NCBI GenBank assembly: GCA_020348345.1
Contig: CP070748.1
Coordinates: 875,196 to 939,195 of the forward strand
Length of the DNA: 64,000 nucleotides
Reading direction: 5' to 3'
From: Methanobacteriota archaeon
GTDB lineage: Archaea; Thermoplasmatota; Thermoplasmata; UBA10834
Shown here: positions 5,168 to 33,716 of the stretch, piece after piece
How positions within the stretch are numbered: the stretch's first letter is position 1
Layout: every line of letters starts with the position of its first letter
Notes under the pieces: model-generated
Told to the model about the DNA's origin: nothing
The model's input: the letters and a program-made list of their open reading frames with translations, nothing else
Databases searched by the model: none
Made by a program: the position numbers and the translations under genes

Positions 5168-6472
5168 TTGGAGAAGAAGCGGGTTGTTGTGATAGGCGGT
5201 GGCATAGCAGGCATTCAGGCATCCCTCGACCTGGCCGATCGGGGCTATGAGGTGCATATTGTCGAGAAGTCACCCTCAATCGGAGGTCACATGGCGCAGC
5301 TGGACAAGACCTTTCCGACAAATGACTGTTCCATGTGCATTCTCTCTCCAAAGATGATATCCTGTGCGGACCACGCCAACGTCGTACTGCATACATACTC
5401 CGAGCTGGAATCGGTCGAGGGTTCCTTCCCCGATTTCAAAGTGACCATTCGCGAGAAGGCGAGATTCATAGACACGGACAGATGCACCGCATGCGGAGAT
5501 TGCATCGCGAAGTGCCCTGTTAAGGTTCCGAGCGAATTCGAAGAGGGGCTCTCTAAGAGGAAGGCGGTCTATCTCCCGTTTCCCCAGGCGGTTCCAAGGA
5601 AGGTCACCATAGACAAGAAGCACTGCCGCATGCTGACCCAGGAGAAATGCGGCGTGTGCAAGAAGGCCTGTCAGGCGGGCGCGGTGGACTTCGAGCAGGA
5701 GGATGCGATTATCGAACTGCGCGCCTCCGTGATCGTTCTGGCCACTGGGTTCGATCTGATGGATGCGGCCGCAATGCCGCAATACGGCTATGGCATTTGC
5801 AAGGATGTCGTAACCTCGCTCCAGCTTGAGCGCCTGCTTTCGGCATCAGGGCCGTCGAACGGACACCTTCGACGCCCTTCGGACGACAAGGAGCCTAGGA
5901 ATCTGGGGTTCATACAATGCGTTGGATCCCGAGACTCCAAGGCACGCAACTACTGCAGCAGCGTCTGCTGCATGTATGCAACGAAGGAATCGATTCTCGC
6001 GCGCGAGCACGCGCCCGACGTGGAGATAGCGATATTCTACATGGACATGAGGGCGACCGGAAAGGGATTTCAGGAATTTGTCTCGAGAGCCAGGGACATC
6101 TACGGTGTAAGGTATGTTCGCTCGAGACCGGCGAAGATCCAACCAGCGAACGGCGATAGCGGAGTTCTGATGAGCTATGAGACAAGAGGCGCAGCTGGAG
6201 AATCCAAAACCGAGGAATTCGATCTGATTGTGCTCTGCCCTGCATTGACGCCTTCAACCAACAACACCGATCTGGCGGAGAAACTCGACGTCGAGCTCGA
6301 CGGTGAGGGTTTCTTCAGAACACCAGACATCGCTCACCCTGTGGACACCACTGGCAAGGGTATTCTTGTATGTGGCTTCGCAAGCGGTCCCATAGACATT
6401 CCAGACTCAGTATCACAGGCATCAGCTGTCGCAGCCCGGGCTGCTGAACTCATAAGTGGAGGTGAGCGCTGA
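5168..6472 (+). CDS. hdrA: HdrA-like flavoprotein, FAD core plus inserted 2x[4Fe-4S] ferredoxin (no N-domain, no C-terminal ferredoxin)
   Basis: TTG start 8 nt after GAGGAGGG. Motifs VVVIGGGIAGIQASLDLA, GGHMAQLDKTFPTNDCSMCILSPKM, CTACGDCIAKCP and CGVCKKACQ. Its stop overlaps the next start (TGATG). Confidence 0.85.
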   Translation: MEKKRVVVIGGGIAGIQASLDLADRGYEVHIVEKSPSIGGHMAQLDKTFPTNDCSMCILSPKMISCADHANVVLHTYSELESVEGSFPDFKVTIREKARFIDTDRCTACGDCIAKCPVKVPSEFEEGLSKRKAVYLPFPQAVPRKVTIDKKHCRMLTQEKCGVCKKACQAGAVDFEQEDAIIELRASVIVLATGFDLMDAAAMPQYGYGICKDVVTSLQLERLLSASGPSNGHLRRPSDDKEPRNLGFIQCVGSRDSKARNYCSSVCCMYATKESILAREHAPDVEIAIFYMDMRATGKGFQEFVSRARDIYGVRYVRSRPAKIQPANGDSGVLMSYETRGAAGESKTEEFDLIVLCPALTPSTNNTDLAEKLDVELDGEGFFRTPDIAHPVDTTGKGILVCGFASGPIDIPDSVSQASAVAARAAELISGGER

Positions 6473-8166
6473 TGCTCAGGATCGGGGTGTTCGTATGTCA
6501 TTGCGGCCACAACATAGCATCGGCGGTCGATGTCGACGAAGTGGTCGAGTTCGCTAGGAAGCTGCCAGGCGTGGTGTACGCAGGACAGAACCTATACTCA
6601 TGCTCTCAGGAAGGACTAGGCTCGATAAAGAAGAGCATCGAGGATAATGATCTCAACAGGGTGGTCGTAGCGGCTTGCACACCGAGAACACACGAGCCGT
6701 TGTTCAGGAGAGCGTGCGAGCAAGCTGGCATAAACAAGTATTTGTTCGAATTCGTGAACATCAGGGAGCACTGCTCCTGGATTCATGCGAAGGAGCCCGA
6801 AGCAGCGACGGGGAAGGCGAAGAAGCTCGTGGCGATGGGAGTGGCAAAGGCGTCATTGCTTGAGCCTCAGGAGGAGGGGGAGTCCGCCGTCATCCCCAGG
6901 GCGGTCGTCATCGGAGCAGGTATTTCCGGGCTGGCTGCGGCGGCATCTCTTCTCGATCAGGGAATAGAGACCCACATCATCGAGTCCAAGAACTGCGTGG
7001 GTGGGCTTCTCAGGGAGGTGGCGGTAATTGGCCCGGAGGATATTGACTCCAGGAACCTCATCAACTCCCTCGAGAAGCGCTTGACTAGCTCTCCGAAGGC
7101 GCACTTGCATCTCAACTCCCGAGTGAAAGAAGTCAAAGGTTTCGTCGGCAACTTCGAGGTTACCATCGCCAAAGGAGATGAGGACATCACGGTCCAAGCT
7201 GGTGCAATAATCGTTGCGACAGGGACACGCGAATTCCAGCCTGCCGGAGAATACGGTTTCGACGAATACCCGGCGGTAATCACGCAGCTTGAGCTGGAGA
7301 GGAGGCTCGCGAAATCCGACTTCGCTGCAAGCAGGATGGCTATCATCAATTGCGCCGGGAGTAGACAGCCCGGGAGAGAGTACTGTTCAAGAGTGTGCTG
7401 CAACGCATCACTGAAGAACGCTCTCCGCATATTGGACAAGAATCCCGATGCCCAGGTAACCATACTTCATAGAGACATCATGAGCTGCGGAGCAGCGGCC
7501 GAAGAGCTTTACAGAAGGGCCTCCGAGAGAGGCGTCCGATTCGTCAGATACGGACTGGAGAAGCGCCCACAGGTTCATGCCAAGGAGAATGGTGTTGTCT
7601 TGGAAGCGTTCGATGAAACCCTGGACGAGACTATCGATCTAGACCTGGATCTCTTGATATTGGCTACTCCGCTCGTTCCCCCCGAAGACTCGGTTGAGAC
7701 AGGCAAACATCTGAAAGTCCCGAGGGACAAGTACGGATTCTTCCTCGAAGCGCATGTCAAGCTGAGGCCAGTGGAATTCGCGACGGATGGCGTATTCGTG
7801 TGCGGCTCTGCACGATGGCCCGTTAGCGCGAGAGAATGCATCTGGCAGGGCCAGGCCGCCGCTGCAAAAGCCTCGATTCCCATAAGCGAAGGCAAGGTTC
7901 GGATAGAAGCAATAACGGCGGAAGTGGACCCGGACAGATGTGCCGCCTGCGGCAACTGCGTTCTCGCCTGTCCCTATGAGGCGATTGAGATCGTCGAGCA
8001 CCTCGACACCATGGCTGCGAAGGTCAATGAAGCTCAGTGCAAGGGCTGCGGCACCTGCGTGGCAGCCTGTCATAACGATGCCATACAACAGAAGGGCTTC
8101 AGCAGCAGACAGCTCGGAGCGATGATAGATGCCCTCATCAGAACAGCAACGGAGGGGACGCAATGA
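6472..8166 (+). CDS. hdrA: HdrA-like protein, N-terminal cluster domain plus Rossmann domain plus C-terminal 2x[4Fe-4S] ferredoxin
   Basis: Canonical HdrA N-domain (IGVFVCHCGHNIA, NRVVVAACTPRTHE, NIREHCSWIH), then VVIGAGISGLAAA, then CAACGNCVLACP and CKGCGTCVAACH. Lacks the inserted ferredoxin and the DKTFPT motif. Confidence 0.8.
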   Translation: MLRIGVFVCHCGHNIASAVDVDEVVEFARKLPGVVYAGQNLYSCSQEGLGSIKKSIEDNDLNRVVVAACTPRTHEPLFRRACEQAGINKYLFEFVNIREHCSWIHAKEPEAATGKAKKLVAMGVAKASLLEPQEEGESAVIPRAVVIGAGISGLAAAASLLDQGIETHIIESKNCVGGLLREVAVIGPEDIDSRNLINSLEKRLTSSPKAHLHLNSRVKEVKGFVGNFEVTIAKGDEDITVQAGAIIVATGTREFQPAGEYGFDEYPAVITQLELERRLAKSDFAASRMAIINCAGSRQPGREYCSRVCCNASLKNALRILDKNPDAQVTILHRDIMSCGAAAEELYRRASERGVRFVRYGLEKRPQVHAKENGVVLEAFDETLDETIDLDLDLLILATPLVPPEDSVETGKHLKVPRDKYGFFLEAHVKLRPVEFATDGVFVCGSARWPVSARECIWQGQAAAAKASIPISEGKVRIEAITAEVDPDRCAACGNCVLACPYEAIEIVEHLDTMAAKVNEAQCKGCGTCVAACHNDAIQQKGFSSRQLGAMIDALIRTATEGTQ

Positions 8167-8582
8167 GCGAGTTCAATCCCAACATTCTGGCGTTCTGCTG
8201 CAACTGGTGCTCGTACGCAGGGGCGGATCTTGCAGGAGTCAATAGACTTCAAATGCCTCCGAACGTGAACGTTGTAAGGGTGATGTGCAGTGCCAGCGTC
8301 AAGCCTGAGTACGTATTCAAGGCAATCTCTCAAGGTATCGATGGTGTTCTGGTTCTGGGGTGTCACATCGGAGACTGTCATTACCTAACTGGCAATCATC
8401 GGACCGCAAAGCGCATACCACTCACCGCGAAGATTCTCGAGAAGGTTGGCATCGACCCCAGACGCGTCCAATTGGACTGGGTTAGCGCGGCTGAGGGTGA
8501 GAAGTTCCAGCAGGTTGTGACGCAGTTCGTCGATGACATCAGGAGCCTGGGACCCAATCCGATGAAGGAGGTGAGATTCTGA
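8163..8582 (+). CDS. mvhD: MvhD/FlpD-type [2Fe-2S] electron-transfer subunit
   Basis: ILAFCCNWCSYAGADLAG...VRVMCSASV...GVLVLGCHIGDCHY is the methyl-viologen-reducing hydrogenase delta subunit signature. ATGA overlap with the upstream gene. Confidence 0.9.
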   Translation: MSEFNPNILAFCCNWCSYAGADLAGVNRLQMPPNVNVVRVMCSASVKPEYVFKAISQGIDGVLVLGCHIGDCHYLTGNHRTAKRIPLTAKILEKVGIDPRRVQLDWVSAAEGEKFQQVVTQFVDDIRSLGPNPMKEVRF

Positions 8583-8599
8583 TCGCTGATGCCGAGAAG

Positions 8600-9379
8600 G
8601 TGATGCGCCTTGCATTCGAAGAACGGGGTGCGGACTACCTGCTCGCCATCAAGGAGGCGCATGGCCAGGCCGCTCCAGTGCTTCTTAGGAAAGGCGACGA
8701 TGCAGGTACCATGCGGTTCGACGTACCCTATCAAATGACGATGATTCTCACCAATATTAGTCGATTCATCAAGGAGGGCAGAATTGCTGTCGTTGCCCGC
8801 AGGTGTGACGAACGGGCAATAGCAGAACTGGTGAAGAGAGACCTCTTGAATCACGACAATCTCGTCGTCATTGGGCTTGCCTGCAGCGAAGAACAGATAC
8901 GCGAATGTCGATGCACTGACCCGTGCCCGAGCAGCGCGGACATCGGGCATTGCGCTGCCCCTGCCAAAGAAGACCAGGCGGCTTCAAGCATACAGAGCAT
9001 GCCTCTTCCGGACAGACTTGACTATTGGATAGATCAGTTCCGAAAATGCAACAAGTGTTTTGGCTGCACGTTGAACTGTCCTGTGTGCTTTTGCGACGAT
9101 TGCCTTCTGGAAGAGAAAACATTCACGCCAGAGAAGGGCATCCCACCAGGGCTTGCGTTCCACCTGATCCGTGCGGTGCACTTGGCCGACAAGTGTGTCG
9201 AGTGTGGGGAATGCGAGCGGTCATGCCCGTCCGACATACCGTTGCTGGCATTGAGAAAGATGGTCAACCAGGACATGAAAAGGATGTTCAATTATACCAG
9301 TGGCGATCCCGAACGAAGGAGTCCGTTGCTTACCACGCTCGAAGGTGACCCGATGGAGGATGATGGCGATGCCTGTTGA
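8600..9379 (+). CDS. 4Fe-4S dicluster electron-transfer protein (AsrA/HydB-beta-like)
   Basis: CNKCFGCTLNCPVCFCDDC and CVECGECERSCP cluster motifs. Sits between mvhD and fdhA. The start is ambiguous (GTG 8600 or ATG 8603, with a strong AAGGAGGTGA at 8565-8574). Confidence 0.6.
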   Translation: MMRLAFEERGADYLLAIKEAHGQAAPVLLRKGDDAGTMRFDVPYQMTMILTNISRFIKEGRIAVVARRCDERAIAELVKRDLLNHDNLVVIGLACSEEQIRECRCTDPCPSSADIGHCAAPAKEDQAASSIQSMPLPDRLDYWIDQFRKCNKCFGCTLNCPVCFCDDCLLEEKTFTPEKGIPPGLAFHLIRAVHLADKCVECGECERSCPSDIPLLALRKMVNQDMKRMFNYTSGDPERRSPLLTTLEGDPMEDDGDAC

Positions 9380-11405
9380 CTACATCCTGACGACGTGTCC
9401 GTACTGCGGTACTGGCTGCAACTTCTTCCTTCAGGTTGCGGACGGGCGGGCGGTTGGTGTAGTGCCATGCAAGACCGATGAAACCAGCGCTGGCAGCCTT
9501 TGCATAAAAGGATACAACGCGCACGCATTCGTCAATCACAGTGACAGGCTGACGCATCCGATGATAAGAGAAGGAGACCAGCTGAGCAAGGCGACCTGGG
9601 AGGAGGCGCTGCAGAGGATAGCATCGGAGATGAAGCGGATATCCGACGAACACGGTCCGGATGCCATCATGGTTCTCGCTTCAGCGAAATGCACGAACGA
9701 GGAGAACTACCTAATCCAGAAGGTTGCACGTGCTGCCATCGGAACGAATAACGTCGATCACTGTGCCCGGCTCTGTCACGCATCCACGGTCGCAGGACTG
9801 CTTCAATCGTTCGGCAGCGGAGCAATGACCAACACGATACCGGAATTCGAGAATGCGGACTGCATACTCGTCACCGGCTCGAACACTCTGGAAGCGCATC
9901 CCCTGATCGGAACCAGAATACTCAAAGCGAGGGACAAGGGGGCGAAGGTAATCGTCGTGGATCCTCGAGATACCCCTCTCTCGCGCGTGGCGACGATCAG
10001 CATGCGACAGGAATCGGGATCGGATGTCGCGTGGATCAATGGCATGATAAACATCATCATATCAGAGAAACTGCACGATGAGGAGTTCATCGCAGCTCGT
10101 ACGACCGGTTTCGACGAGTTGCGAGAAATCGTCAAGAATTACACTCCCGAGAGAGTGAAGAGCCTCACCGGAATTCCCGAGGATGACCTCGTGTCTGCCG
10201 CCAAGATGTATGCATCTGCTGACAAAGCCATGATAGCCTACGCGATGGGAATCACTCAACACAGTAACGGGACAAACCTGGTGCGAGCGCTGGCAAATCT
10301 CGCAATGGTAACCGGGAACGTGGGCAGGGAATCCACGGGCGTCAATCCATTAAGGGGGCAATGCAACGTCCAGGGCGCATGCGACGCAGGCGCGTTACCG
10401 AACCTTTATCCAGGATATCAAAGCGTGGAGGATGCCGAGACGCGCTCCAAATTCGAGCATGCATGGAATCGAAAGCTCAGCGAAAAGAAGGGCATGGCTT
10501 TGACCAACGCATTCGACAAGGCCCTGACTGGTGAGGTGAAGGCGATGCTCATATTCGGCGAGAATCCGATGATGTCGGACCCTGACATCGGGCACGTCGA
10601 AAGGGCAATTTCGAAGCTGGAGTTCATGGCGGTCATCGATATCTTCCCCACCGAGACCGTGAAGCTTGCCGACGTGGTCCTCCCTGCCGCGTGCTATGCG
10701 GAGAAGAACGGAACGTTCACGGCGACTGACCGAGCGGTAAGAGCGGTCAGGAAGGCCGTAGATCCGCCAGGCGACGCAAGGCCCGATTGGCAGATAGCCT
10801 GTGATCTCGGGAGATTGCTTGCAGGCGATGGCTTCGACTTCGCCTCACCCGAGCAAGTGCTGGCTGAGATGGCCGCGGTCGCGCCGATCTACGGCGGGAT
10901 CGATTACGAGCGAATCGAAGAGGAGATGGTCCGCTGGCCTTGTCCGTCTAAAGACCACCCAGGCACGAAGGTTCTGCACACAGAATCGTTCAAGATTGGC
11001 AAGGGTGTATTCGCACCCATCGAGCACACTCCTCCAGCGGAGGAGACTTCGGACGAGTATCCACTAATCCTCACGACCGGCAGAAACCTCTTTCAATTCC
11101 ACACTGGCACGATGACAAGGAGATCCGCCAAGCTTCAGCGGGAAGCTGCAGGACCCTACGTCGAGATCAACACGGAGGATGCGCGGAGGCTCGGCATCAT
11201 CGACGACGCAAGCGTTAGAATCACCTCACGAAGAGGGACCATAACCCTGGCTGCCAGGGTCACACAATGGATCAGACCGGGAACCATCTTCATTCCCTTC
11301 CACTATGCCGAAGCGGCTGCGAACAGACTTACTAACAACGCGTTGGATCCGACCGCCCAGATCCCGGAATACAAGGTGTGTGCGGCGAGATTGGAGAAAG
11401 CCTGA
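9369..11405 (+). CDS. fdhA: Formate dehydrogenase catalytic subunit (molybdo/tungstopterin, Cys-type, cytoplasmic)
   Basis: N-terminal TTCPYCGTGCNF 4Fe-4S motif. HCARLCHASTVAGL aligns with the FdhH ARVUHGPSVAGL active site, with TGT (Cys) at 9774-9776. No Tat signal. Start chosen 9 nt after GGAGG; ATG 9360 and 9363 are also possible. The track ORF start at 9300 is rejected. Confidence 0.85.
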   Translation: MPVDYILTTCPYCGTGCNFFLQVADGRAVGVVPCKTDETSAGSLCIKGYNAHAFVNHSDRLTHPMIREGDQLSKATWEEALQRIASEMKRISDEHGPDAIMVLASAKCTNEENYLIQKVARAAIGTNNVDHCARLCHASTVAGLLQSFGSGAMTNTIPEFENADCILVTGSNTLEAHPLIGTRILKARDKGAKVIVVDPRDTPLSRVATISMRQESGSDVAWINGMINIIISEKLHDEEFIAARTTGFDELREIVKNYTPERVKSLTGIPEDDLVSAAKMYASADKAMIAYAMGITQHSNGTNLVRALANLAMVTGNVGRESTGVNPLRGQCNVQGACDAGALPNLYPGYQSVEDAETRSKFEHAWNRKLSEKKGMALTNAFDKALTGEVKAMLIFGENPMMSDPDIGHVERAISKLEFMAVIDIFPTETVKLADVVLPAACYAEKNGTFTATDRAVRAVRKAVDPPGDARPDWQIACDLGRLLAGDGFDFASPEQVLAEMAAVAPIYGGIDYERIEEEMVRWPCPSKDHPGTKVLHTESFKIGKGVFAPIEHTPPAEETSDEYPLILTTGRNLFQFHTGTMTRRSAKLQREAAGPYVEINTEDARRLGIIDDASVRITSRRGTITLAARVTQWIRPGTIFIPFHYAEAAANRLTNNALDPTAQIPEYKVCAARLEKA

Positions 11406-11435: not shown

Positions 11436-12731
11436 TCATCTCCCAGCGGGTCGCCTCATCGCGAGTGCGATGCCGAAGGCCGCCAGCGAGGCCATGCCGA
11501 CCGCAACGAACACCCAGATGAAGCCGCTCTCCGTTGTCGCCATGAAACCCGGTATCAATCCACCAACCACCCCCGCAGCACCGTAGCCGGTGAAGACCAG
11601 GCCGTAATTGATGCCGATGTTTCTAGTGCCGAAGTACTCCGCAGTAGTCGATGGAAACAGCGAAAAGTTACCTCCGAAAGTGAATCCTACCGCGGCTGCC
11701 AAGGACGTCAGTCCTATGAACTGGATAATCTCCCCTGACGGCCTTGCGGCAAAGAACCATGCAGCGGCGAGCAACAACAAAGCCTGTAGGAGAAACATTA
11801 TTCTCAAAGTGTTCGCTCTTCCCAGAGAGTCTGACACCTTGCCCCAGACTATCCTCCCTGCTCCATTGAACAGCGCGATTATCCCGGCGATCGTTTGGAA
11901 CTGGGCAACGACCAGCGCGCTTCCGGATGGGTCCAGGTACTGGGCAAGGTTCCTGACATTGGCAATCATCATCAGGCCGGCAGTCGCCGACAGAAGGAAC
12001 ATCATGAAGAGCATGGGGAACTGCTTCGTTCTCATCATTTCCCTCCATCCGAACTCGTGGTTCGTCTTGGCAGCGGCATCCGGCGGCACATATCCCCTGG
12101 GCATCCAGCCTTCCGGGGGGTTCCTCAGGAGTTGCGCACCACCTACGACCATCAACAGGAATATCAATCCAAGATAGAGGAATGCGTCACTCAGTCCGTT
12201 CGATGATGAGTCAATAATCCAATTGCCAACCTGAGTGAACAGGAAAGCACCCGCACCAAACCCTGCAACGGCAATGCCCGTCACAAAGCCCCTCTTGTCC
12301 GGGAACCACTTCACCGCCGCGGCAAGGGGGCAGACATAGCCAAGGCCCAAGCCTATTCCGCCGAGGACGCCGTAGGAGAGATACATCATTGGGAGGCTTT
12401 CCGTTGAAAAAGCCGCCGTTATGTATCCGGCGCTGTAGGCAAGGCCACCCGCTGTGGCAACAATCCGGGGTCCTTTTCGGTCTTGCAGCCTCCCTGCAAA
12501 GATCATCGTTAATGCGAAAATCGCAATCGCCGCGGAGAATATGCCGAGGATGGCGAACGACTTCGGATCCGAATCAAGCGCTTCAGACAAAGGGGATGTG
12601 AATATCGAGAAGGCGTACACTGCGCCCAATGCTAACTGGATGAGAAGAGCTCCGAGAACAACTGACCATCGATTCATGACTCGTTCATTCGAGTGTTCAG
12701 GTTTGCTCGCCTCTTCAGATATCGCGTTCAT
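11436..12731 (-). CDS. MFS transporter, oxalate/formate antiporter (OFA) family
   Basis: 431 aa with about 12 TM segments. The N-terminal LGALLIQLALGAVYAFSIF motif is typical of the OFA subfamily. Confidence 0.75.
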   Translation of the reverse strand: MNAISEEASKPEHSNERVMNRWSVVLGALLIQLALGAVYAFSIFTSPLSEALDSDPKSFAILGIFSAAIAIFALTMIFAGRLQDRKGPRIVATAGGLAYSAGYITAAFSTESLPMMYLSYGVLGGIGLGLGYVCPLAAAVKWFPDKRGFVTGIAVAGFGAGAFLFTQVGNWIIDSSSNGLSDAFLYLGLIFLLMVVGGAQLLRNPPEGWMPRGYVPPDAAAKTNHEFGWREMMRTKQFPMLFMMFLLSATAGLMMIANVRNLAQYLDPSGSALVVAQFQTIAGIIALFNGAGRIVWGKVSDSLGRANTLRIMFLLQALLLLAAAWFFAARPSGEIIQFIGLTSLAAAVGFTFGGNFSLFPSTTAEYFGTRNIGINYGLVFTGYGAAGVVGGLIPGFMATTESGFIWVFVAVGMASLAAFGIALAMRRPAGR

Positions 12732-12854: not shown

Positions 12855-14612
12855 TCAGTCCTCCAGAGTTGAAGTGTCTCCGATCGGAAGCCCTAGCTCT
12901 TTTGCCCTCAGAAGCCTTCTCATGATCTTGCCACTCCTGGTCTTGGGAAGTGTCTTGACGACGTCGATCTCCCTTGGGTATGCGTGACCAGCCAGCCGGC
13001 TCTTGACGAACTTCTGAATGTCCTTCTTGAGCTCTTCTGATTCTGCATGGCCAGGAGTGAGGACTATGAACGCCTTGATGATGTTCCCTCTAAGCTGATC
13101 CGGCTTTCCGATAACGCCCGCTTCAGCAACCGCATCATGTTCGATAAGTGCGCTTTCAACCTCGAAAGGGCCGACTCTCTCGCCCGAGGTCTTGATTACG
13201 TCATCCGCCCGACCGACATACCAGAAGTATCCGTCATCGTCGATCATTGCGGTGTCGCCAGTGTAGTACCAGCCGTTTCTCATGTACTCATTGTACTTGG
13301 ATTCGTTCTTCCATATCTCCCTCATCATCGAAGGCCAGCCTGGCCTTATGACCAGGTTCCCTTCCTCGCCTTGAGGGAGGACATTGCCTTCTTCATCGAC
13401 TATCTCAGCCTCTATGCCGGGGAGAGGCTTGCCCATCGACCCGGGCTTTATGGGCATTTCGGGGAAGTTAGTGATGAGAATGCTGCCCGTCTCGGTCTGC
13501 CACCAAGTGTCGTGGAAGGGCTTGTTGTCGAAGACTTCGAGGGCCCACTTGACTCCTTCGGGGTTCAGCGGCTCCCCTACGGAGTACAGGGCCCTCAGTG
13601 AGGAGAGATCGTATTTGGCGGGCAGGTCATCCCCCTTAGCCATGAGCATCCTAACAGCAGTGGGCGCTGTGTACCATACGGTCACTTTGTGATTCTGAAT
13701 CGATCTGTACCAGAGATCGGGGTCGAACCTTCCTCCGAGGCCGACCTGAGTGACGCCACATGACCACGGTCCCAGGCACCCATAGACCACGCCGGTAACC
13801 CATCCGAGATCGGCGGTGCACCAGTAGACATCCTCGTCGTGAAGGTCGAGAACCCACTTCGAAGTGAGCGTCTGCTGCACAATGCCTTTGTGAGCGTGAA
13901 CGACGCCTTTGGGCTTGCCCGTCGTACCCGACGTATACAACATGAATTGGTACTCCTCGGGATCCATCGGCACAGTCTCGAAGTCCTCTGCAGAGGACTC
14001 CATTTCAACCTGGTAACTGACTTCGCCCGCGTTTGCATCAGCATCATCGACAACGATGATGTGCTTGAGGTCCGGAAGCTGCTCCTTGATCGGGTACACC
14101 CGTTTGGCAAGCTCGGAACTGGTGACCAGCGCGACGGCGCCGCTGTCCAGCAACCTATCCCTTATCGCATCAGGTCCGAAAGCAGGGAACATAGGGCTGG
14201 CTATGGCGCCAGCTTTGATGGTGCCAAGGAAGCTGACGTACAGCTCTTTTGACCGCTGCAGGAAGACGAATACTCTATCCTGCCTTTTGATGCCCAGCTT
14301 GACCAGTACGTTCGCGAACTTGTTCGTCTCGCGATACATCTCGAGAAAAGTGATCTTCTGCACATTTCCATTGCCATCGTCATAGATGAGGGCCGCTTTG
14401 TCCTTCCTCTCGCCGAGCGCGTGTCTGTCGATTACATTGTAGACTGAGTTGATCTGTCCATCAGGAAACCAATCGACAAGCTCCTCAGCATCTCCCCATT
14501 TGAATGTCCGTCTCAGCCCATCGTAACCCTGCAGATTTGGTTTCAATCTCAATTGGGCGAGGTTCTTCTCTATCAACTCGCCATCTGACATTTCGCTGCT
14601 CTTCTCGGTCAT
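12855..14612 (-). CDS. AMP-forming acetyl/acyl-CoA synthetase
   Basis: Motifs YTSGTTGKPKGV, YWCTADLGWVTG, YYTGD and the C-terminal KTRSGKIMRR. At 585 aa it is shorter than the classical 650-aa Acs, so substrate is uncertain. Confidence 0.85.
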   Translation of the reverse strand: MTEKSSEMSDGELIEKNLAQLRLKPNLQGYDGLRRTFKWGDAEELVDWFPDGQINSVYNVIDRHALGERKDKAALIYDDGNGNVQKITFLEMYRETNKFANVLVKLGIKRQDRVFVFLQRSKELYVSFLGTIKAGAIASPMFPAFGPDAIRDRLLDSGAVALVTSSELAKRVYPIKEQLPDLKHIIVVDDADANAGEVSYQVEMESSAEDFETVPMDPEEYQFMLYTSGTTGKPKGVVHAHKGIVQQTLTSKWVLDLHDEDVYWCTADLGWVTGVVYGCLGPWSCGVTQVGLGGRFDPDLWYRSIQNHKVTVWYTAPTAVRMLMAKGDDLPAKYDLSSLRALYSVGEPLNPEGVKWALEVFDNKPFHDTWWQTETGSILITNFPEMPIKPGSMGKPLPGIEAEIVDEEGNVLPQGEEGNLVIRPGWPSMMREIWKNESKYNEYMRNGWYYTGDTAMIDDDGYFWYVGRADDVIKTSGERVGPFEVESALIEHDAVAEAGVIGKPDQLRGNIIKAFIVLTPGHAESEELKKDIQKFVKSRLAGHAYPREIDVVKTLPKTRSGKIMRRLLRAKELGLPIGDTSTLED

Positions 14613-15035: not shown

Positions 15036-15926
15036 TCAGCCCTTGTAGTCGTGATGCACCTTTGCTGCGCGAACCGTGTTCTTCATCAGCATAGTGATGG
15101 TCATCGGGCCAACTCCTCCGGGAACTGGCGTGATGGCTTTCGCCTTATCCTTGACCGCGTCGAAGTCGACATCACCGACCAGTCTCTTGCCACTCTTGGT
15201 CGTCGGGTCATCGATTCGGTTGACTCCAACATCCACCACAACCACGCCATCCTTCACCATATCCGCTTTGACAAACTTGGGCACACCCATCGCAGCGATG
15301 AGAATGTCTGCCTGCCTGGACAGGGCAGGAAGGTCGGCCGTGCGAGAATGACAGACCGTAATGGTGGCGTCCGCTCCGGCCGCCTTCTGTACGAGAATGT
15401 TGGCAATGGGCTTTCCGACAATGTTGCTTCTTCCAAGTATGACGACGTGCTTTCCCTTTGGATCGTTTCCGCTCCTGACTAAGAGGTCCTGAATTCCAGC
15501 AGGAGTACATGGGAGATATGTTTCTGCGCCGACAACCATCTTGCCGACGTTGACAGGGTGGAAACCATCCACATCCTTCCCGGGATCGATTCTCATCAGG
15601 ACCTTCTCTTCGCTGATCTGCTTCGGCAGGGGGAGTTGCACGAGAATTCCATCAAACTCCGGGTCCGCGTTGTATTTGTCGACCAGCTTCAGCATCTCGT
15701 CCTCAGAGGTGGTTGCGGGGAGCCTGATAGTCTCCGATTTGATGCCCAGCTCCTCGCACGCCTCGCCCTTCTTCCGGACGTAGACCTGCGATGCCGGATC
15801 TTCTCCAACAAGAATGACGACCAGCCCTGGCGTCACACCGGAGACCTTCATCTTGGATATCTCCTCCTTAAGCTCGGCCCTTATGGTCTTCGCAACATCG
15901 TTTCCGCTTATGATTTCCGCCGCCAT
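15036..15926 (-). CDS. folD: Bifunctional methylene-THF dehydrogenase / methenyl-THF cyclohydrolase
   Basis: ILVGEDPASQVYVRKK, ILVQLPLP, HPVNVG, GRSNIVGKP and PVPGGVGPMT motifs. Start set at MAAEIISG; the track ORF start at 15980 is rejected. Confidence 0.9.
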   Translation of the reverse strand: MAAEIISGNDVAKTIRAELKEEISKMKVSGVTPGLVVILVGEDPASQVYVRKKGEACEELGIKSETIRLPATTSEDEMLKLVDKYNADPEFDGILVQLPLPKQISEEKVLMRIDPGKDVDGFHPVNVGKMVVGAETYLPCTPAGIQDLLVRSGNDPKGKHVVILGRSNIVGKPIANILVQKAAGADATITVCHSRTADLPALSRQADILIAAMGVPKFVKADMVKDGVVVVDVGVNRIDDPTTKSGKRLVGDVDFDAVKDKAKAITPVPGGVGPMTITMLMKNTVRAAKVHHDYKG

Positions 15927-16013
15927 CGTATCACGTCCAGGGCAAGTTGATGCGGGCGCCTTACTTAAGGTTTCGCGCAAGCTCTAGTCGAGGCTCGAAC
16001 TCCTCCGAAAGGA

Positions 16014-16059: not shown

Positions 16060-17739
16060 ATGGCAATGAAGCCAGATATCGAGATTGCTCAGAAAGCGAA
16101 AGTCCAGCATATCGAGAAGATCGCCGAGAAGGTCGGTCTTTCTCATGACGACCTTGACTTCTACGGGAAGTATAAGGCCAAGGTGCCGTTGAACGTGCTG
16201 AAGAAGTTTGACAGCAACAAGGACGGGAAGCTGATATTCGTTACTGCCATCACGGCTACCAAGGCGGGAGAGGGAAAGACGGTAACGTCCATCGGTCTCT
16301 GTCAGGCATTCGGACAGCTTGGCAAGAATGTGATGCTGTCCTTGAGAGAGCCATCCTTGGGCCCGACTTTCGGGATTAAGGGAGGCGCGACAGGCGGAGG
16401 CTACTCCCAGGTCTATCCGATGTGGGATATCGATCTGCATTTCACAGGGGACATCCACGCTGTGGGCACAGCCCACAACCTCTTGTCTGCGCTCACGGAG
16501 AATCACGTGACAAAGAAGAACGAGCAGAACATCGATCCAACAAGAATCGTGTTCAGAAAAGCTCTTGACATGAACTGCAGAGAGCTCAGGAACATCGTCG
16601 TCGGCCTCGGTGGACGGAGCAAGGGCGGAGTTCCGAGGGAGAGTGGCTTCGACATAACCGTGGCTAGCGAAATCAACGCGATTCTTGCACTCGCAAGCGA
16701 CATGGCAGACCTCAGGAAGAGACTGTCGCGAATTGTAGTTGCATACACGCGCGATGGAAAGCCTATCACTGCGGACAAATTGAAAGGTATTGGTGCGATG
16801 TGCCTCCTGCTGAAGGACGCCATCAACCCCACCCTGGTCCAGACACTCGAAGGTCAGCCTGCGTTCATTCACGGATCCCCGTTCGCCAACATCGCCCATG
16901 GCAACAGTTCCATCATCGCCACGAAGTATGCCCTCAAGATGGCAGACTATGTGATCACAGAGGGCGGCTTCGCTGCAGACCTCGGTGGAGAGAAGTTCTT
17001 CAACATCGTGTGCAGGGTGGGCAACCTCAAGCCGGACGTCGCCGTTCTGGTGGCAAGCATAAGGGCATTGAAGATGCACGGCGGCATGGATGTGAAGGAG
17101 ATAGGCAACCCGAACACTGACTTCCTCGAGAAGGGCTACATGAACCTTGACAAGCACATTGAGAACATGAAGAAATTCGGCGTCCCCGTTGTCGTGGCCA
17201 TCAATCAGTTCCCTACGGACTCTCCCGAGGAGATCGAGCATATCAAGAAGCACTGCGAGAAGGTAGGAGCCAGGTTCGGCCTTTCGAAGGTCTTCACTGA
17301 CGGAGGCAAGGGCGGTGTGGAACTCGCTGAGGCGGTTCTCGAGTCGATTGAGAAGGAGAAGTCCAACTTCAAGGTCCTTTACGACGAAAAGCTCCCGATA
17401 AGTGACAAGATCAGGACGATTGCGACTGAGATCTACGGAGCGGAGGACGTTGTCTATACTGGCACGGCGCCTGCTGACATGAAGGCGATTGAGGCCGCAG
17501 GAAATGACAAGCTCCCGATTTGCATGGCAAAGACGCAGCTGTCGATAACGGACGATCCAGCCAAGAAGGGCGCTCCAAAGGACTGGGTCCTGACTGTCAG
17601 AGAAGTTAGGTTGTCGGCCGGGGCCGGGTTCATCGTCCCTCTAACTGGAGAAATCATGACGATGCCTGGTCTTCCTACGGTTCCAGCAGCCGAGCGGATA
17701 GACATCGACGACGACGGTCACATAACGGGCTTGAATTGA
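16060..17739 (+). CDS. fhs: Formate--tetrahydrofolate ligase
   Basis: 559 aa. PDIEIAQ, ITPTKAGEGKT-type P-loop (AITATKAGEGKTV), FDITVASE, HGGPFANIAHG-type (HGSPFANIAHGNSS) and LPICMAKTQ motifs. Confidence 0.95.
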   Translation: MAMKPDIEIAQKAKVQHIEKIAEKVGLSHDDLDFYGKYKAKVPLNVLKKFDSNKDGKLIFVTAITATKAGEGKTVTSIGLCQAFGQLGKNVMLSLREPSLGPTFGIKGGATGGGYSQVYPMWDIDLHFTGDIHAVGTAHNLLSALTENHVTKKNEQNIDPTRIVFRKALDMNCRELRNIVVGLGGRSKGGVPRESGFDITVASEINAILALASDMADLRKRLSRIVVAYTRDGKPITADKLKGIGAMCLLLKDAINPTLVQTLEGQPAFIHGSPFANIAHGNSSIIATKYALKMADYVITEGGFAADLGGEKFFNIVCRVGNLKPDVAVLVASIRALKMHGGMDVKEIGNPNTDFLEKGYMNLDKHIENMKKFGVPVVVAINQFPTDSPEEIEHIKKHCEKVGARFGLSKVFTDGGKGGVELAEAVLESIEKEKSNFKVLYDEKLPISDKIRTIATEIYGAEDVVYTGTAPADMKAIEAAGNDKLPICMAKTQLSITDDPAKKGAPKDWVLTVREVRLSAGAGFIVPLTGEIMTMPGLPTVPAAERIDIDDDGHITGLN

Positions 17740-17963: not shown

Positions 17964-19217
17964 ATGAAGGTCCTCGTGATTGGAGGAGGTCCAGCGGGCC
18001 TAACCGCAGCCGGGACCCTTGCGAGCAACGGTCTGGAAGTAGCATTGGTGGAGAGAGACTACACCCTCGGAGGCATGGCCAAAGAGCTCACATGCAAGGG
18101 CATCACAGAATGCAGGGATTGCGGCGTCTGTTTCGCCATTGACCGCGCCGCAGAGGCAGTCAGGACGCCTGGAATCGAGGTTTTCTTGAGTTCAGAGATT
18201 ACATCCTTGGAAAAGACCAACGAGGGGTTCAAGGCGAAGATCCGCTCTTCAGCGCGGTTCGTCACACACAACTGCATTGGTTGCAACAACTGCGTCGAAG
18301 TCTGCCCTGTTGAAGGCAAGGCGATCTTTGCACCTTCTGGCAGTGGCCAGCCTCGAACATATTGGATTGATCGCAAGCGATGTTTGCACTTCAAGAAGAG
18401 CAAGTGCGAGGAATGCGCGAAGGCCTGTCCGACGAAGGCTATCGATTTCTCTGACAGAGCGAAGAACGTGACGAGAACAGTCTCCAAGGTTGTGCTGGCG
18501 ACTGGCATTGAGCCTTTCGACGCCCAGGAGCTTCCGAGACTGGCCTGCGGAACAACCTCCGATGTTATCTCCAGCGTTGATGCGGAAAGGATAATCAACG
18601 AAGAGGGGCGATTGAAGAGGCCATCAGATGGAGTCGTACCGAAGACGGTAGCGATGATTCAGTGCGTGGGTTCCCGTAACGAAAAGACTGGCATCGGATA
18701 CTGCTCGAAGTTCTGCTGCAAGTACGGAACGAAGATCGCACAGCTGATAATGGAAGGCTCTCCGGAAATGGACCTCGATTTCTACTTCATGGACCTGAGG
18801 ACACTGTATGAACCTCAGGAAGATTTCAAGAAATGGGCAGTGGCGATGAAGAGGAAGGTAGAGAAGAAGAAGGTGCCGCGTGTGAGGCTGATAAGATGCA
18901 TGCCTTCCTTAGCATATCCTGGAGAAGATGGGAAGATATGGCTGCGATCATCGGGAGAGACAGACGCTGAAGTGATGGAAACTCCCTACGACATGGTGAT
19001 ACTCTCTGTGGGAATGCGGCCGCGTGGCGTGCCTGAGGACATCGCTTCTCGACTAGGCCTGGCTTTTGATGATAACGGCTTCGCACGATGCCAGGATGAA
19101 GAAGGCGACCCAGTCGTGATCGTTCTGGGAGCGATGAGTGAACCCATGGATATCGAGGAGACCGTCACCAGGGCGATGGCAGCGGCTGCTACCCCGAGAA
19201 AGGAGGCGGGCGAATGA
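17964..19217 (+). CDS. hdrA: HdrA-like flavoprotein, FAD core plus inserted ferredoxin (paralogue of 5168-6472)
   Basis: VLVIGGGPAGLTAAGTLA, CIGCNNCVEVCP, CEECAKACP, IQCVGSR and YCSKFCC. Same architecture and length class as the first cassette. ATGA overlap with the next gene. Confidence 0.8.
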   Translation: MKVLVIGGGPAGLTAAGTLASNGLEVALVERDYTLGGMAKELTCKGITECRDCGVCFAIDRAAEAVRTPGIEVFLSSEITSLEKTNEGFKAKIRSSARFVTHNCIGCNNCVEVCPVEGKAIFAPSGSGQPRTYWIDRKRCLHFKKSKCEECAKACPTKAIDFSDRAKNVTRTVSKVVLATGIEPFDAQELPRLACGTTSDVISSVDAERIINEEGRLKRPSDGVVPKTVAMIQCVGSRNEKTGIGYCSKFCCKYGTKIAQLIMEGSPEMDLDFYFMDLRTLYEPQEDFKKWAVAMKRKVEKKKVPRVRLIRCMPSLAYPGEDGKIWLRSSGETDAEVMETPYDMVILSVGMRPRGVPEDIASRLGLAFDDNGFARCQDEEGDPVVIVLGAMSEPMDIEETVTRAMAAAATPRKEAGE

Positions 19218-20794
19218 ATCGTGGGACTCAAGTTGTGATATGCCGAGTCTGCTCGGAAGGTGCGGGTCTGCTGGATGTCGACAAGCTCGCTCGAGTGGCC
19301 TCCGATGCACCGGGAGTCTGTTCGACAGTTGTTGTCGAACGCGCGTGTAACAAGAAGACCGTGTTGGAGATAGTCGACGACGCGATGGCAAAGGAAGCCG
19401 ACCGCCTGTTGGTTGCCCCGTGTTCAAAGAAGGAAATCTCGCCTGCCCTGTTCCAAACATATGCGAAGAAGGCCAAGATGAACGAATTCCTGATGGAGGC
19501 AGTGGACATAATCGGAGAGGTCACGCTTCCGCACAGAGATGATCCGACACGCGTTCAACCCAAGGCCGAGGCAAAGCTTCGGTCTGCAATCGTCCGAATC
19601 AACATGCTCGAGCCGTTGCAGAGAACCGAGGAGCGCATGAGGACTTCGAACGTCGTGGTGATTGGAGCAGGCGCCGCCGGAATCGAAGCCGCATCTGTCG
19701 CTTCCGCCTTTGGGCTTCATACAGTCATCATTGAGAAGTCCGAGAAGAAGATTGACGCGCCTGGAGTAGTAATGCCCAAGTCAAGACTCATCTCGGCGAA
19801 AGGTCACGCTGGTAACTACATTCTGACAATAGAAGTAGGAGAGAAGAGAGAGACACTTGAGTGCGCAGCGATTGTCGTAGCATCTGGTGGCGATTGGCGC
19901 GAAGCGAAGGGACCGATTGTGGACGAATTGCAAGTTGCGAAGCCCTTACATCACCTGGAACAAGAAATTGGCGAAGGCAGGCTGCCGGGCGGCGCGATCA
20001 TCATATTGGACACGCCTGACCCAAAAGGTATCAGAACCCCGGCTCAGGATTTCATGTGGGAAGAAGCTCTCCATTGCGCAACGCATATACGCAGGAAATC
20101 CCCCACCACTGAGGTCTATCTGGTCTTCCAAGAGATGCGGGCGATGGGACTCGCCGAATTCGACTACAAGGAGGCATCTGAGCTAGGAGTGAAGTTCATT
20201 CGCTACGATTCCAAGAAGCCTCCGAAGGTCGATACTAAGAACGGAACGCGCCTGATTGTGACAGACATGGCACAGGAAGAGACCCTCTCACTCGCGTTCG
20301 ATACTCTGTATTATGCTTCAGTCGCTCCGAATCCAGACAACGCAGCGATTGCGGTTGCGCTTCGTATTCCGATCTCATCCAGTGGTGGGATAAGAAGAGG
20401 GAGCATCCAGAGAGGACCTGTTGCCACGCCACGTCCAGGCATATTCGTTTGCGGGACAGCAAAGTTTCCAAAGAGCAGAGAAGTCGCGAGACTCGAAGGC
20501 AAGGCTGCGGGACTTATGGCGGCCCAATTTGCGGCGGCTGGCAAGTGGGAGTTTGGAGGCTCGGTTGCGGAGGTCACATCTGACAAGTGCTCTGCGTGTC
20601 TCACTTGCGTTCGAACCTGTCCGTATGAGGCACCCTTCATAGGCATTGCCGGAAAGGCGGAAATCGCAATCCAGATGTGCCAGGGATGTGGAATATGCGC
20701 CGGCATATGTCCCAGCAAGGCGATTGAACTGCACAACTACACTGACGACCAACTCTCGGCAGAGACAGCAGCATATCTCGGAGGTGATTTCTGA
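19214..20794 (+). CDS. hdrA: HdrA-like protein, degenerate N-domain plus Rossmann plus C-terminal ferredoxin (paralogue of 6472-8166)
   Basis: VVICRVCSEGAG...LLVAPCSKKE (Cys-poor N-domain), VVVIGAGAAGIEAAS, CSACLTCVRTCP and CQGCGICAGICP. Its stop overlaps the mvhD start (TGATG). Confidence 0.75.
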   Translation: MNRGTQVVICRVCSEGAGLLDVDKLARVASDAPGVCSTVVVERACNKKTVLEIVDDAMAKEADRLLVAPCSKKEISPALFQTYAKKAKMNEFLMEAVDIIGEVTLPHRDDPTRVQPKAEAKLRSAIVRINMLEPLQRTEERMRTSNVVVIGAGAAGIEAASVASAFGLHTVIIEKSEKKIDAPGVVMPKSRLISAKGHAGNYILTIEVGEKRETLECAAIVVASGGDWREAKGPIVDELQVAKPLHHLEQEIGEGRLPGGAIIILDTPDPKGIRTPAQDFMWEEALHCATHIRRKSPTTEVYLVFQEMRAMGLAEFDYKEASELGVKFIRYDSKKPPKVDTKNGTRLIVTDMAQEETLSLAFDTLYYASVAPNPDNAAIAVALRIPISSSGGIRRGSIQRGPVATPRPGIFVCGTAKFPKSREVARLEGKAAGLMAAQFAAAGKWEFGGSVAEVTSDKCSACLTCVRTCPYEAPFIGIAGKAEIAIQMCQGCGICAGICPSKAIELHNYTDDQLSAETAAYLGGDF

Positions 20795-21213
20795 TGGCCG
20801 ACGCAAAGCCAAAGATTGTTGGCTTCTGCTGCGAGAAACATGGCACGGAGAGCGTTGACCTCGCCATCAGAAGTGGCGAGCAGTATGATGCAAGCGTGAG
20901 GCTTGTCACTGTGCCCTGCACTGGAAGGGTAGACGGACTGCATATTCTCAAGGCGTTGGAAGACGGCGCCGATGCCGTTTTCGTCCTTGGATGCCTTGAG
21001 AAGAACTGCTACTATGACACAGGATCAATCGAGGGTCGGAAGAGGGTTGAGTACGTTAGAACCATGCTTTCAGAGGTGGGTATAGAACCTGAGCGTGTGG
21101 AGATGTTCAACGCAAGCTCCACGATGGTATGGAAGTTCCCCGAAATCGCTTCGACGATGTCACAGACTGCCAGACGTCTTGGTCCAATCGAGCCGAGAGG
21201 TGATACGAAATGA
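20794..21213 (+). CDS. mvhD: MvhD/FlpD-type electron-transfer subunit (second copy)
   Basis: KIVGFCCEKHG...LVTVPCTGRV...AVFVLGCLEKNCYY. 139 aa, the same length as the first copy. Confidence 0.85.
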   Translation: MADAKPKIVGFCCEKHGTESVDLAIRSGEQYDASVRLVTVPCTGRVDGLHILKALEDGADAVFVLGCLEKNCYYDTGSIEGRKRVEYVRTMLSEVGIEPERVEMFNASSTMVWKFPEIASTMSQTARRLGPIEPRGDTK

Positions 21214-33502: not shown

Positions 33503-33716
33503 CGGCGCTCGTCCTAATCTCATTTCCTGAGAATTCGACGGTTTAGGCCAATGGTAAGGGCGTGGTGGGAAGACGACATTTGCGATGGCAAGCCTCAAGC
33601 GTTTATGCTTCGCTCAAGCGTGAGCTAAGTGAAGCTTCTATGACCGTGGCTGTGATGAAAACTACAAGCTAAAGGGTTTGCGCGTCGAAAACATAGATCA
33701 GAAGGGCCGGGTGACG

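Follow-up and report, generated by a model that had tools for sequence, protein, structure and literature searches.

The DNA analysed here (the window) is a 64-kb stretch, positions 875,196 to 939,195 of contig CP070748.1 (assembly GCA_020348345.1), from a Methanobacteriota archaeon of the Thermoplasmata (UBA10834), and the system under study is a predicted formate dehydrogenase operon at window positions 5168-11405. The operon contained five open reading frames (ORFs), all on the plus strand and in one direction, with overlapping genes. The first two products are an HdrA "core" paralogue (Acore1, 5168..6472, 434 amino acids (aa)) and an HdrA "N+C" paralogue (ANC1, 6472..8166, 564 aa), both assigned from HdrA structure alignments and profiles. 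They are followed by an MvhD/FlpD [2Fe-2S] adaptor (8163..8582, 139 aa; PF02662, 5e-54), a truncated FdhB (FdhB', 8603..9379, 258 aa) and FdhA, a cytoplasmic Cys-type Mo/W-bisPGD formate dehydrogenase alpha subunit (9360..11405, 681 aa). The original prediction, made from the sequence alone, had described five co-oriented genes with overlapping stop and start codons, and these were found as claimed, with TGATG at 6470-6474, ATGA at 8163-8166 and the fdhA start within the 3' end of the preceding Fe-S gene. That start is most likely ATG 9360 rather than GTG 9300, since most Thermoplasmata orthologues are 678-681 aa long and TIGR01591 aligns to the longer ORF from residue 31 onward. The Fe-S gene probably starts at ATG 8603, as its orthologues are 258 aa long.

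FdhA scored 844.8 bits on TIGR01591 (cut-off 666.25), and its nearest solved homologues were 9t1s_L (2e-218) and 7bkb_D (1.8e-195) of methanogen Fdh-Hdr complexes, with FdhF of HDCR (7qv7_S) also among them. The FdhA motifs CPYCGTGC, CARLCHAS and NPLRGQ aligned to 9t1s_L, with the next His and the LRGQ Arg kept, and the FdhA Cys aligned with X of 9t1s_L, presumably selenocysteine (CARLCHAS vs CARLXHSA). Direct reading of the sequence showed no visible Tat motif at the FdhA N-terminus. The profile score, the Cys at the presumed selenocysteine position and the lack of a Tat motif agree with the cytoplasmic Cys-type FdhA that had been predicted, and its proposed wiring via MvhD is consistent with the solved methanogen Fdh-MvhD-Hdr complexes.

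The closest solved homologues of ORF 8603-9379 were the F420-type FdhB chains of methanogens, 9t1s_M (1.5e-27), 7bkb_E (2.6e-26) and 8rvu_E (6.8e-25). Residues 23-96 of FdhB' aligned with FdhB 52-125 and residues 140-243 with FdhB 276-379, so that the N-terminal segment of FdhB and the C-terminal 2x[4Fe-4S] domain were retained. FdhB 126-275 (about 150 residues) was reduced to 43 aa, leaving about 107 residues missing. We take the lost segment to be the FAD/F420 domain of FrhB/FdhB proteins; no match to PF04432 or PF04422 (FrhB/FdhB) was found in FdhB' up to E 10. On this alignment, the ORF is a truncated FdhB without the F420/FAD domain, an Fe-S wire only, from FdhA to MvhD. The subunit had been called AsrA/HydB-like, and this label was rejected, since the FdhB chains were the best homologues and PF17179 (Fer4_22) matched ORF 8600-9379 with E 3.8 only, vs 4e-34 in the AsrA-like protein of a Myxococcota locus (L019).

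Domains and ligands of the two HdrA halves

The domain assignments were read from the sequence. Acore1 aligned to 5odc_A (Methanothermococcus HdrA, 654 aa) in a single block, residues 144-569 (E 6e-135), which takes in DKTFPTNDCSMC as well as the inserted 2x[4Fe-4S] ferredoxin; the same alignment gave no match of Acore1 to the HdrA N-terminal domain or C-terminal ferredoxin. ANC1 aligned to the HdrA chain 8rvu_a in two blocks (13-244 and 322-654), and the inserted ferredoxin was skipped. The first ORF had been described as a flavin core with the inserted ferredoxin and neither N-domain nor C-terminal ferredoxin, and the second as carrying exactly the missing parts without the inserted ferredoxin. 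Both descriptions were borne out by the two alignments, and neither ORF contained the full HdrA domain set. Canonical HdrA, as defined by 5odc and the NCBIfam models NF041778, NF040770 and NF041891, has all four domains on one polypeptide; each ORF fell outside this definition, and the full set was present only with both combined. The first three operon products tiled the NCBIfam HdrA2 profile (777 positions, with MvhD fused), Acore1 covering 139-564, ANC1 two stretches (the best 310-644) and MvhD 647-774. Acore1 and ANC1 scored far under the whole-protein cut-offs of HdrA2 (514 and 508 bits vs 1100) and HdrA (403 and 360 bits vs 1400).

The FAD domain of Acore1 is thioredoxin-reductase-like (TrxR-like), with Cys54/Cys57 and Lys273 corresponding to Cys194/197 and Lys409 of 5odc, and its HA4-type cluster ligands are C251, C263, C267 and C268. 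ANC1 begins with an N-terminal cluster domain (ligands C9, C11, C44 and C69), continues with a second FAD-type Rossmann domain (GxGxxG, E171 and Lys315) and an HA4-type cluster (C294, C305, C309 and C310), and ends in a 2x[4Fe-4S] ferredoxin. The earlier list of N-domain motifs had included REHCSW; the N-domain is present, but the Cys of this motif is not a cluster ligand, as it is not conserved in canonical HdrA. Other residues replace Cys194/Cys197 in ANC1, which likewise lacks the canonical KD(I)P Asp. The bifurcation hallmarks Lys273, Cys54/57 and Asp410 are found in Acore1, and ANC1, without the Cys pair and the Asp, retains Lys315.

The same division was seen across both families. The core family (13 Thermoplasmata and 46 other sequences) keeps Cys54/Cys57, the eight inserted-ferredoxin Cys, the four HA4 Cys, Lys273 and the KDIP Asp (Asp410 in Acore1). 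The N+C family (15 Thermoplasmata and 69 other sequences) keeps the four N-domain Cys, GxGxxG, Glu171, the four HA4-type Cys and the eight C-terminal ferredoxin Cys. Among the Acore1 orthologues, the four HA4 Cys and the Lys at flavin N5 were strictly kept (13/13); among those of ANC1, the HA4 Cys were present in 15/15 and Lys315 in 14/15. A DCxxC motif was found in 0/78 N+C-type proteins, and the KD(I)P Asp was not conserved among them.

Conservation and pairing of the halves

The homologue survey (tblastn, with ORF-level blastp on the loci) scanned one genome per species and returned 79 loci. Of 78 N+C-type genes, 10 had no upstream coverage and one had a 100-N gap upstream. A core-type gene lay immediately upstream in 38/78, was fused to the N+C-type half in the same order as the window genes in about 22/78, and stood elsewhere in the same cluster, behind an HdrB-like gene, in 5-6/78. 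Wherever the locus was covered the core partner was present, except at the single locus with the 100-N gap. MvhD came next in nearly all core/N+C pair loci. The pair is therefore not confined to this genome: in archaea as well as bacteria, the two halves almost always stand side by side or fused, with their order unchanged.

A neighbour-joining tree was built from 336 shared TrxR-domain columns of 140 sequences with 40 bootstraps, the N+C group being defined strictly, leaving out canonical-like HdrA proteins with N-domains. The tree recovered a core clan and an N+C clan, a split spanning archaea and bacteria, with bootstrap values of 45% and 57%, respectively. The separate clades expected for the two halves were thus recovered, with modest bootstrap support. 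Canonical HdrA was nearer to the core type (48% identity) than to the N+C type (37%).

The proposed heterodimer of Acore1 and ANC1 is well supported, by the sequences and by analogy with solved relatives. The proposal that two complementary paralogues replace the HdrA homodimer finds support in the ligand complementarity, in the adjacency and fusion of the genes, and in the precedent of BamE from the Geobacter metallireducens class II benzoyl-CoA reductase, where cryo-EM revealed a fused intramolecular HdrA dimer (preprint 10.64898/2026.04.10.717634). If Cys57 of Acore1 completes the N-domain cluster of ANC1, the heterodimer would be obligate. The two paralogues might instead not be paired, forming homodimers or pairs across modules (Acore1-ANC2 and Acore2-ANC1, where Acore2 and ANC2 belong to the second module described below), or only one of them might sit in the Fdh complex. 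There are indeed two paralogous sets in one genome, 10 kb apart, and one locus (L010/L081, CP070732.1) has ANC-MvhD-FdhB'-FdhA with no core gene detected upstream. That locus is uninformative owing to the 100-N gap directly upstream, however, and natural fusions join core- and N+C-type halves in the window gene order. The TGATG overlap couples the Acore1 and ANC1 genes, either homodimer would be unable to build the N-domain cluster for want of a ligand or an entire domain, and the proteins of modules 1 and 2 are just 28-32% identical. Non-pairing is accordingly considered quite improbable.

The CP070732.1 locus was rejected as a case without a core gene for the reason given. In this nominally "complete" MAG chromosome, the run of 100 N (L010 7758-7858 / L081 9880-10001) lies directly upstream of the N+C-type gene. 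Past the gap come 39 aa of an HdrA-type C-terminal ferredoxin, with 53% identity to the C-terminus of ANC2, and this fragment stops in TGATG where the N+C gene starts. No core gene is visible, either because the assembly is faulty or because the genes are arranged differently. Among the fused forms, four from Desulfobacula/Desulfobacterales (L021 about 590-760, L025, L031 and L032) had an in-frame TGA precisely where Cys57 (= Cys197) would stand (DKTFPTNDCAM*I). This TGA implies selenocysteine in these fusions, and U197 has been reported for M. maripaludis HdrA, matching selenocysteine at the Cys197 position.

The closest relatives of ANC1 were proteins of 559-566 aa from metagenome-assembled genomes of uncultured Thermoplasmata (more than 120 clusters at 65% identity or above), with no annotation beyond HdrA family or FAD-dependent oxidoreductase. 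All five genes stood in the order Acore-ANC-MvhD-Fe-S-FdhA in 12 species-level genomes of Thermoplasmata (L001-L005, L007-L009, L011-L013 and L020), and partial copies were present in three more loci, L006 and L028 (both truncated at a contig end) and L010 (assembly gap). Downstream, a convergent acetate-CoA ligase gene was found in 10/10 complete loci with enough sequence and an MFS transporter gene in 9/10. On CP070736.1, independent gene calling with Pfam labels gave the same order; as in the window, FolD, Fhs and another core-type HdrA lay downstream of it. On CP070732.1, the gene of a beta-class carbonic anhydrase (PF00484; L081 16342-16902, minus strand) separates the MFS transporter from the acetate-CoA ligase, close beside the fdh operon.

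In other lineages, an HdrB-like gene (about 288 aa) usually stood just before the core/N+C pair. The input modules after the pair were MvhG/MvhA in Thorarchaeota, MetVF in Dehalococcoidales and others, and NAD(P)H modules of FdhB'-like, AsrA-like and AsrB-like proteins in Myxococcota/Desulfobacula. Because different input modules are attached in different lineages, the core/N+C/MvhD unit can be described, from its gene neighbourhoods, as a modular platform, of which the Thermoplasmata version is unusual in being without an adjacent HdrB/C. In the Myxococcota and Desulfobacula loci L019 (10961-13857) and L032 (4575-7402 and 11025-13901), a QmoC-like protein (NarI and Fer4 diclusters) and an HdrB-like CCG protein precede the fused HdrA pair; after it come MvhD, the FdhB'-like Fe-S subunit, and then AsrA-like (Fer4_22) and AsrB-like (FAD/NAD(P)-binding) proteins. 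The FdhB'-like subunit beside AsrA/AsrB-like modules suggests that the truncated-FdhB type also adapts non-Fdh input. Some core-type HdrA proteins, about 915-925 aa long, and some fusions of 1480-1740 aa carried an insertion of about 480 aa in or beside the inserted ferredoxin (L027, L036, L045-L049, L057, L060 and L074-L078, Thorarchaeota; L022, L034, L037-L039 and L042). The translated insertion in L034 and L056 resembles a GltD/NfnB-type NAD(P)H domain, VIGGGNVAIDAARSA.

Proposed electron route, possible partner and neighbouring genes

The reading that we somewhat favour is that the operon encodes a soluble formate dehydrogenase/CO2 reductase on a single-armed, asymmetric HdrA unit, with its partner encoded outside the operon. 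The electron path is modelled on solved homologues. FdhA would oxidise formate or reduce CO2, either direction being possible, and FdhB' would serve as the Fe-S wire from FdhA to MvhD. The docking site for Vhu or FdhAB in M. maripaludis consists of VhuD and the two terminal regions of HdrA, N and C; here both of these regions lie on ANC1, which with MvhD would receive the input module as in the methanogen complexes. Electrons would reach the FAD of Acore1, and the mobile N-domain cluster of ANC1 would be completed by Cys57 of Acore1. The low-potential route would run from the ANC1 N-domain cluster to the inserted ferredoxin of Acore1 and on to ferredoxin, and the high-potential route through the HA4 cluster of Acore1 to the partner. 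The FAD site of ANC1 is likely, though not certainly, structural or non-bifurcating, as in BamE. Judging from the neighbouring genes, the complex would link formate/CO2 to ferredoxin in a tetrahydrofolate (THF)-dependent C1 pathway.

Regarding the partner, no hdrB, hdrC or CCG-domain gene was found in or beside the operon in the window. The sole CCG-domain protein in the 64 kb was an HdrD/DsrK-like protein (58312-59541, minus strand; Fer4 dicluster and two CCG domains by domain matches), whose best NCBIfam match was TfrB-like at 219 bits, below cut-off. Its gene overlaps that of an HdrE/NarI-like membrane protein (59538-60512, minus strand; 324 aa, NarI-like domain). The pair at 58312-60512 looks like an HdrDE/DsrMK membrane pair, and a role as the high-potential partner is speculative. 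HdrB-D have also been reported for these Thermoplasmata lineages (PMC11264602). The original description "no HdrBC" therefore holds for the operon only, given the HdrDE-like pair at 58.3-60.5 kb and the reported HdrB-D of relatives. The further claim that the partner is not HdrBC cannot be concluded, since HA4, which leads to HdrC in canonical enzymes, retains its four Cys in both halves, HdrD-like genes are present in the window and, in relatives, some 5.8 kb upstream, and most homologues outside the Thermoplasmata have an HdrB-like gene beside them. The high-potential acceptor is probably delivered by an HdrBC- or HdrD-like partner encoded outside the operon.

On CP070736.1 (L080 1-2890), about 5.8 kb upstream of the operon, there was an HdrD-like protein of 385 aa (Fer4 and CCG), whose gene adjoins those of a B12-binding protein (568 aa) and a MobB protein with a PF04060 "FeS" domain (240 aa). 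From their domains, the B12-binding, MobB-FeS and HdrD-like trio may be a corrinoid-related redox set, and by synteny it would fall just beyond the left edge of the window. The upstream HdrD-like gene was rejected as an operon member, with six unrelated minus-strand genes in between.

Several points weigh against the favoured reading. No hdrBC was found in or beside the operon in any of about 14 Thermoplasmata loci, so that the third partner is an assumption. The core and N+C families were separated by a simple neighbour-joining tree at bootstrap values of 45-57% only. ANC1 keeps the N5 Lys (Lys315) where TrxR2 of BamE has Gln, and a catalytic flavin in ANC1 is possible. The formate/CO2 couple is also nearly isopotential with ferredoxin, so that bifurcation is not thermodynamically required.

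The first and last of these bear on a non-bifurcating reading, in which the five subunits would be a complete, reversible formate:ferredoxin oxidoreductase, supplying the THF pathway as a CO2 reductase that depends on ferredoxin, with no HdrBC-type partner, the HdrA FAD would act as a converter between two-electron and one-electron transfer, and the HA4 clusters would be structural or dead ends. The operon is without hdrBC in every Thermoplasmata locus while most other lineages keep an adjacent HdrB-like gene, the potentials of formate/CO2 and ferredoxin are similar, and the loss of the F420/FAD branch from FdhB would reduce the complex to one wire. The strict retention of the HA4 Cys and N5 Lys in Acore1 orthologues, and of the HA4 Cys in those of ANC1, would be odd for an unused branch. 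Moreover, the characterised HdrA-type enzymes all bifurcate, and HdrD-like proteins are encoded in the window and near the operon in relatives. This reading is a serious contender, though appreciably less probable than a bifurcating unit with an external partner.

NAD(P) had also been put forward as a partner substrate. In a formate:NAD(P)+ bifurcating or confurcating enzyme, NAD(P) would be bound by the second Rossmann domain of ANC1, which retains the dinucleotide-binding GxGxxG and Glu171, and the Myxococcota/Desulfobacula pairs that precede an AsrB-like FAD/NAD(P) subunit show that the wider family does include NAD(P)H-coupled members. The users of NAD(P) have a dedicated module, however, either the AsrB-like subunit or the GltD-like insertion (NfnB-type according to PMC9012536), and profile searches found no subunit with an NAD(P)-binding domain in the operon. 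The GxGxxG of ANC1 is the FAD motif of the TrxR-like fold, and the position of the NADPH Rossmann domain is taken by the HA4 Cys, as in canonical HdrA. An NAD(P)-linked enzyme is hence the most improbable of the readings considered.

Beyond fdhA, the window contained an MFS transporter of the oxalate/formate-antiporter / lactate-transporter family (11436..12731, minus strand; profile match, position kept in relatives), an AMP-forming acetate-CoA ligase (12855..14612, minus strand; profile match, conserved synteny), the methylene-THF dehydrogenase/cyclohydrolase FolD (15036..15980, minus strand) and the formate-THF ligase Fhs (16060..17739, plus strand). A second HdrA module follows at 17964-22831, about 6.5 kb past fdhA, with overlapping stops and starts throughout and proteins 28-34% identical to those of the fdh module. 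It comprises, all on the plus strand, Acore2 (17964..19217, 417 aa, 32% identical to Acore1), ANC2 (19214..20794, 526 aa, 28% identical to ANC1), a second MvhD (MvhD2, 20794..21213, 139 aa; PF02662, 1.5e-37) and the methylene-THF reductase proteins MetV (21210-21914) and MetF (21911-22831), whose genes are translationally coupled to the HdrA pair and MvhD2. ANC2 is more degenerate than ANC1, the HA4 Cys and N5 Lys being lost. The module is like the MetFV-HdrABC-MvhD cluster of Moorella, but without HdrBC.

By its gene content, the region from 5 to 23 kb looks like a THF-dependent C1 (Wood-Ljungdahl methyl-branch) island with two HdrA-pair modules. Further along, an MttB-family methyltransferase gene (32048-33598, minus strand) is one uninterrupted 516-aa ORF that scored 523.8 bits, against a cut-off of 525, on the model for pyrrolysine-type trimethylamine methyltransferases. 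The product looks like a non-pyrrolysine MttB homologue, consistent with a feed of methylated amines into the THF pathway. Non-methanogenic sister lineages of Methanomassiliicoccales have been reported with Fhs, FolD, MTHFR, mttB and "HdrA-D, MvhAGD" and without MCR (PMC11264602), and from its genes the host resembles these lineages.

With two modules in one island, a bolder scheme can be drawn, in which both redox steps of THF C1 metabolism (CO2/formate and methylene-/methyl-THF) would run on paralogous single-armed HdrA heterodimers without HdrBC, and high-potential electrons would go to methylene-THF via MetVF or to a non-thiol acceptor. We regard this scheme as unlikely; if true, it would amount to formate-driven bifurcation with a C1 carrier in place of the heterodisulfide, an energy-coupling scheme previously undescribed.

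Methanogens and many other anaerobes depend centrally, for their energy metabolism, on flavin-based electron bifurcation of the HdrA type, and the locus offers what appears to be a clean natural split of an asymmetric HdrA unit, with the docking and catalytic halves as separate small proteins. The split unit would be attached to a simplified formate dehydrogenase, with an FdhB lacking the F420 branch, and is duplicated beside MetVF in the same island. As a minimal system for expression and dissection, it could help to tell the bifurcating flavin from the other, to define the role of the latter and to show how the heterodisulfide is replaced. The assignments also refine the metabolic models of abundant uncultured sediment Thermoplasmata related to Methanomassiliicoccales, in which these genes are now annotated "HdrA".

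Comparison with known systems

The literature searches turned up no account of separate halves with the core half first in Thermoplasmata, of an FdhB stripped of its flavin domain, or of an operon without HdrBC plus a sibling module on MetVF. Heterodimers were not mentioned in a 2025 paper on HdrA diversity, and a 2024 preprint on HdrA evolution had nothing specific.

The heterodimer idea, supported here, was already published in 2022, when anaerobic methanotrophic archaea (ANME) were proposed to form obligate HdrA heterodimers whose halves complement each other in N-domain and Cys197, a feature also noted for Moorella (Chadwick et al. 2022, PMC9012536). HdrA5/6, HdrA12/13 and the fused HdrA3/4 of ANME, and the MetFV-HdrABC-MvhD cluster of Moorella thermoacetica, show the complementary loss of N-domain and Cys197 that is seen in the window (PMC9012536). 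The likeness to ANME extends to the complementary C-terminal ferredoxin, the adjacent or fused genes, MvhD in the cluster and, in some clusters, FdhA-like partners. The ANME fused forms place the N-domain half first, whereas the window has the core half first, and ANME clusters usually contain HdrBC or HdrD with an F420-type FdhB, whereas the window operon has no HdrBC and an FdhB without the flavin domain. Unlike ANME, the window host belongs to a non-methanogenic Thermoplasmata lineage with a THF pathway.

The methanogen FdhAB-MvhD-HdrABC(-Fmd) complexes (7bkb of Methanospirillum hungatei; 9t1s/9sfi; 8rvu) are homologous to the window proteins in FdhA (E 2e-218 to 1.8e-195), the FdhB core (E about 1e-25 to 1e-27), MvhD and all HdrA domains. 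Their HdrA is a four-domain polypeptide forming a symmetric homodimer, whereas two proteins are found in the window. Methanogen FdhB keeps the central segment, presumably the F420/FAD domain, that is lost in FdhB', and HdrBC and CoM-S-S-CoB are integral to the methanogen complexes but HdrBC is absent from the window operon.

Clusters of the type hdrA/hdrL-mvhD-fdhB-fdhA or HdrBCA-MvhD-FdhBA have been described in Desulfobacterium autotrophicum HRM2, Desulfobacula toluolica and marine Chloroflexi. Compared by description, these have the order HdrA(-like), MvhD, Fe-S "FdhB" and FdhA as in the window, and HRM2 has cases in which two or three co-linear genes together carry one HdrA domain set, like those of the window. 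They differ in being bacterial, often with selenocysteine and in several cases with HdrBC, and the heterodimer logic was not analysed there. QmoA/QmoB of sulfate reducers, considered as the closest classical analogue, are likewise two different HdrA-like flavoproteins that work together, one short and core-type, the other with ferredoxin and MvhD-like domains; Qmo is membrane-anchored via QmoC and serves APS reductase.

In BamE, TrxR1 holds the bifurcating FAD, with Lys at N5 and Cys59-Cys62, and TrxR2 a non-bifurcating FAD with Gln at N5; electrons enter from an MvhD-like adaptor at the C-terminal ferredoxin and leave either at low potential, through the inserted ferredoxin, or through cluster E4 towards the HdrBC-like BamD and then ETF (10.64898/2026.04.10.717634). 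Compared by this published description, Cys54/Cys57 and the domain order of the window match BamE. Unlike the window system, BamE is one polypeptide with selenocysteine, a HydABC-like NADH/ferredoxin input and low-potential output to BamBC. It also has the adjacent HdrBC-like BamD as its high-potential exit, and ANC1 keeps Lys where the second FAD of BamE has Gln. The asymmetric HdrA concept (2022), Hdr-linked Fdh clusters, solved Fdh-MvhD-Hdr complexes and the fused form by cryo-EM are therefore already known.

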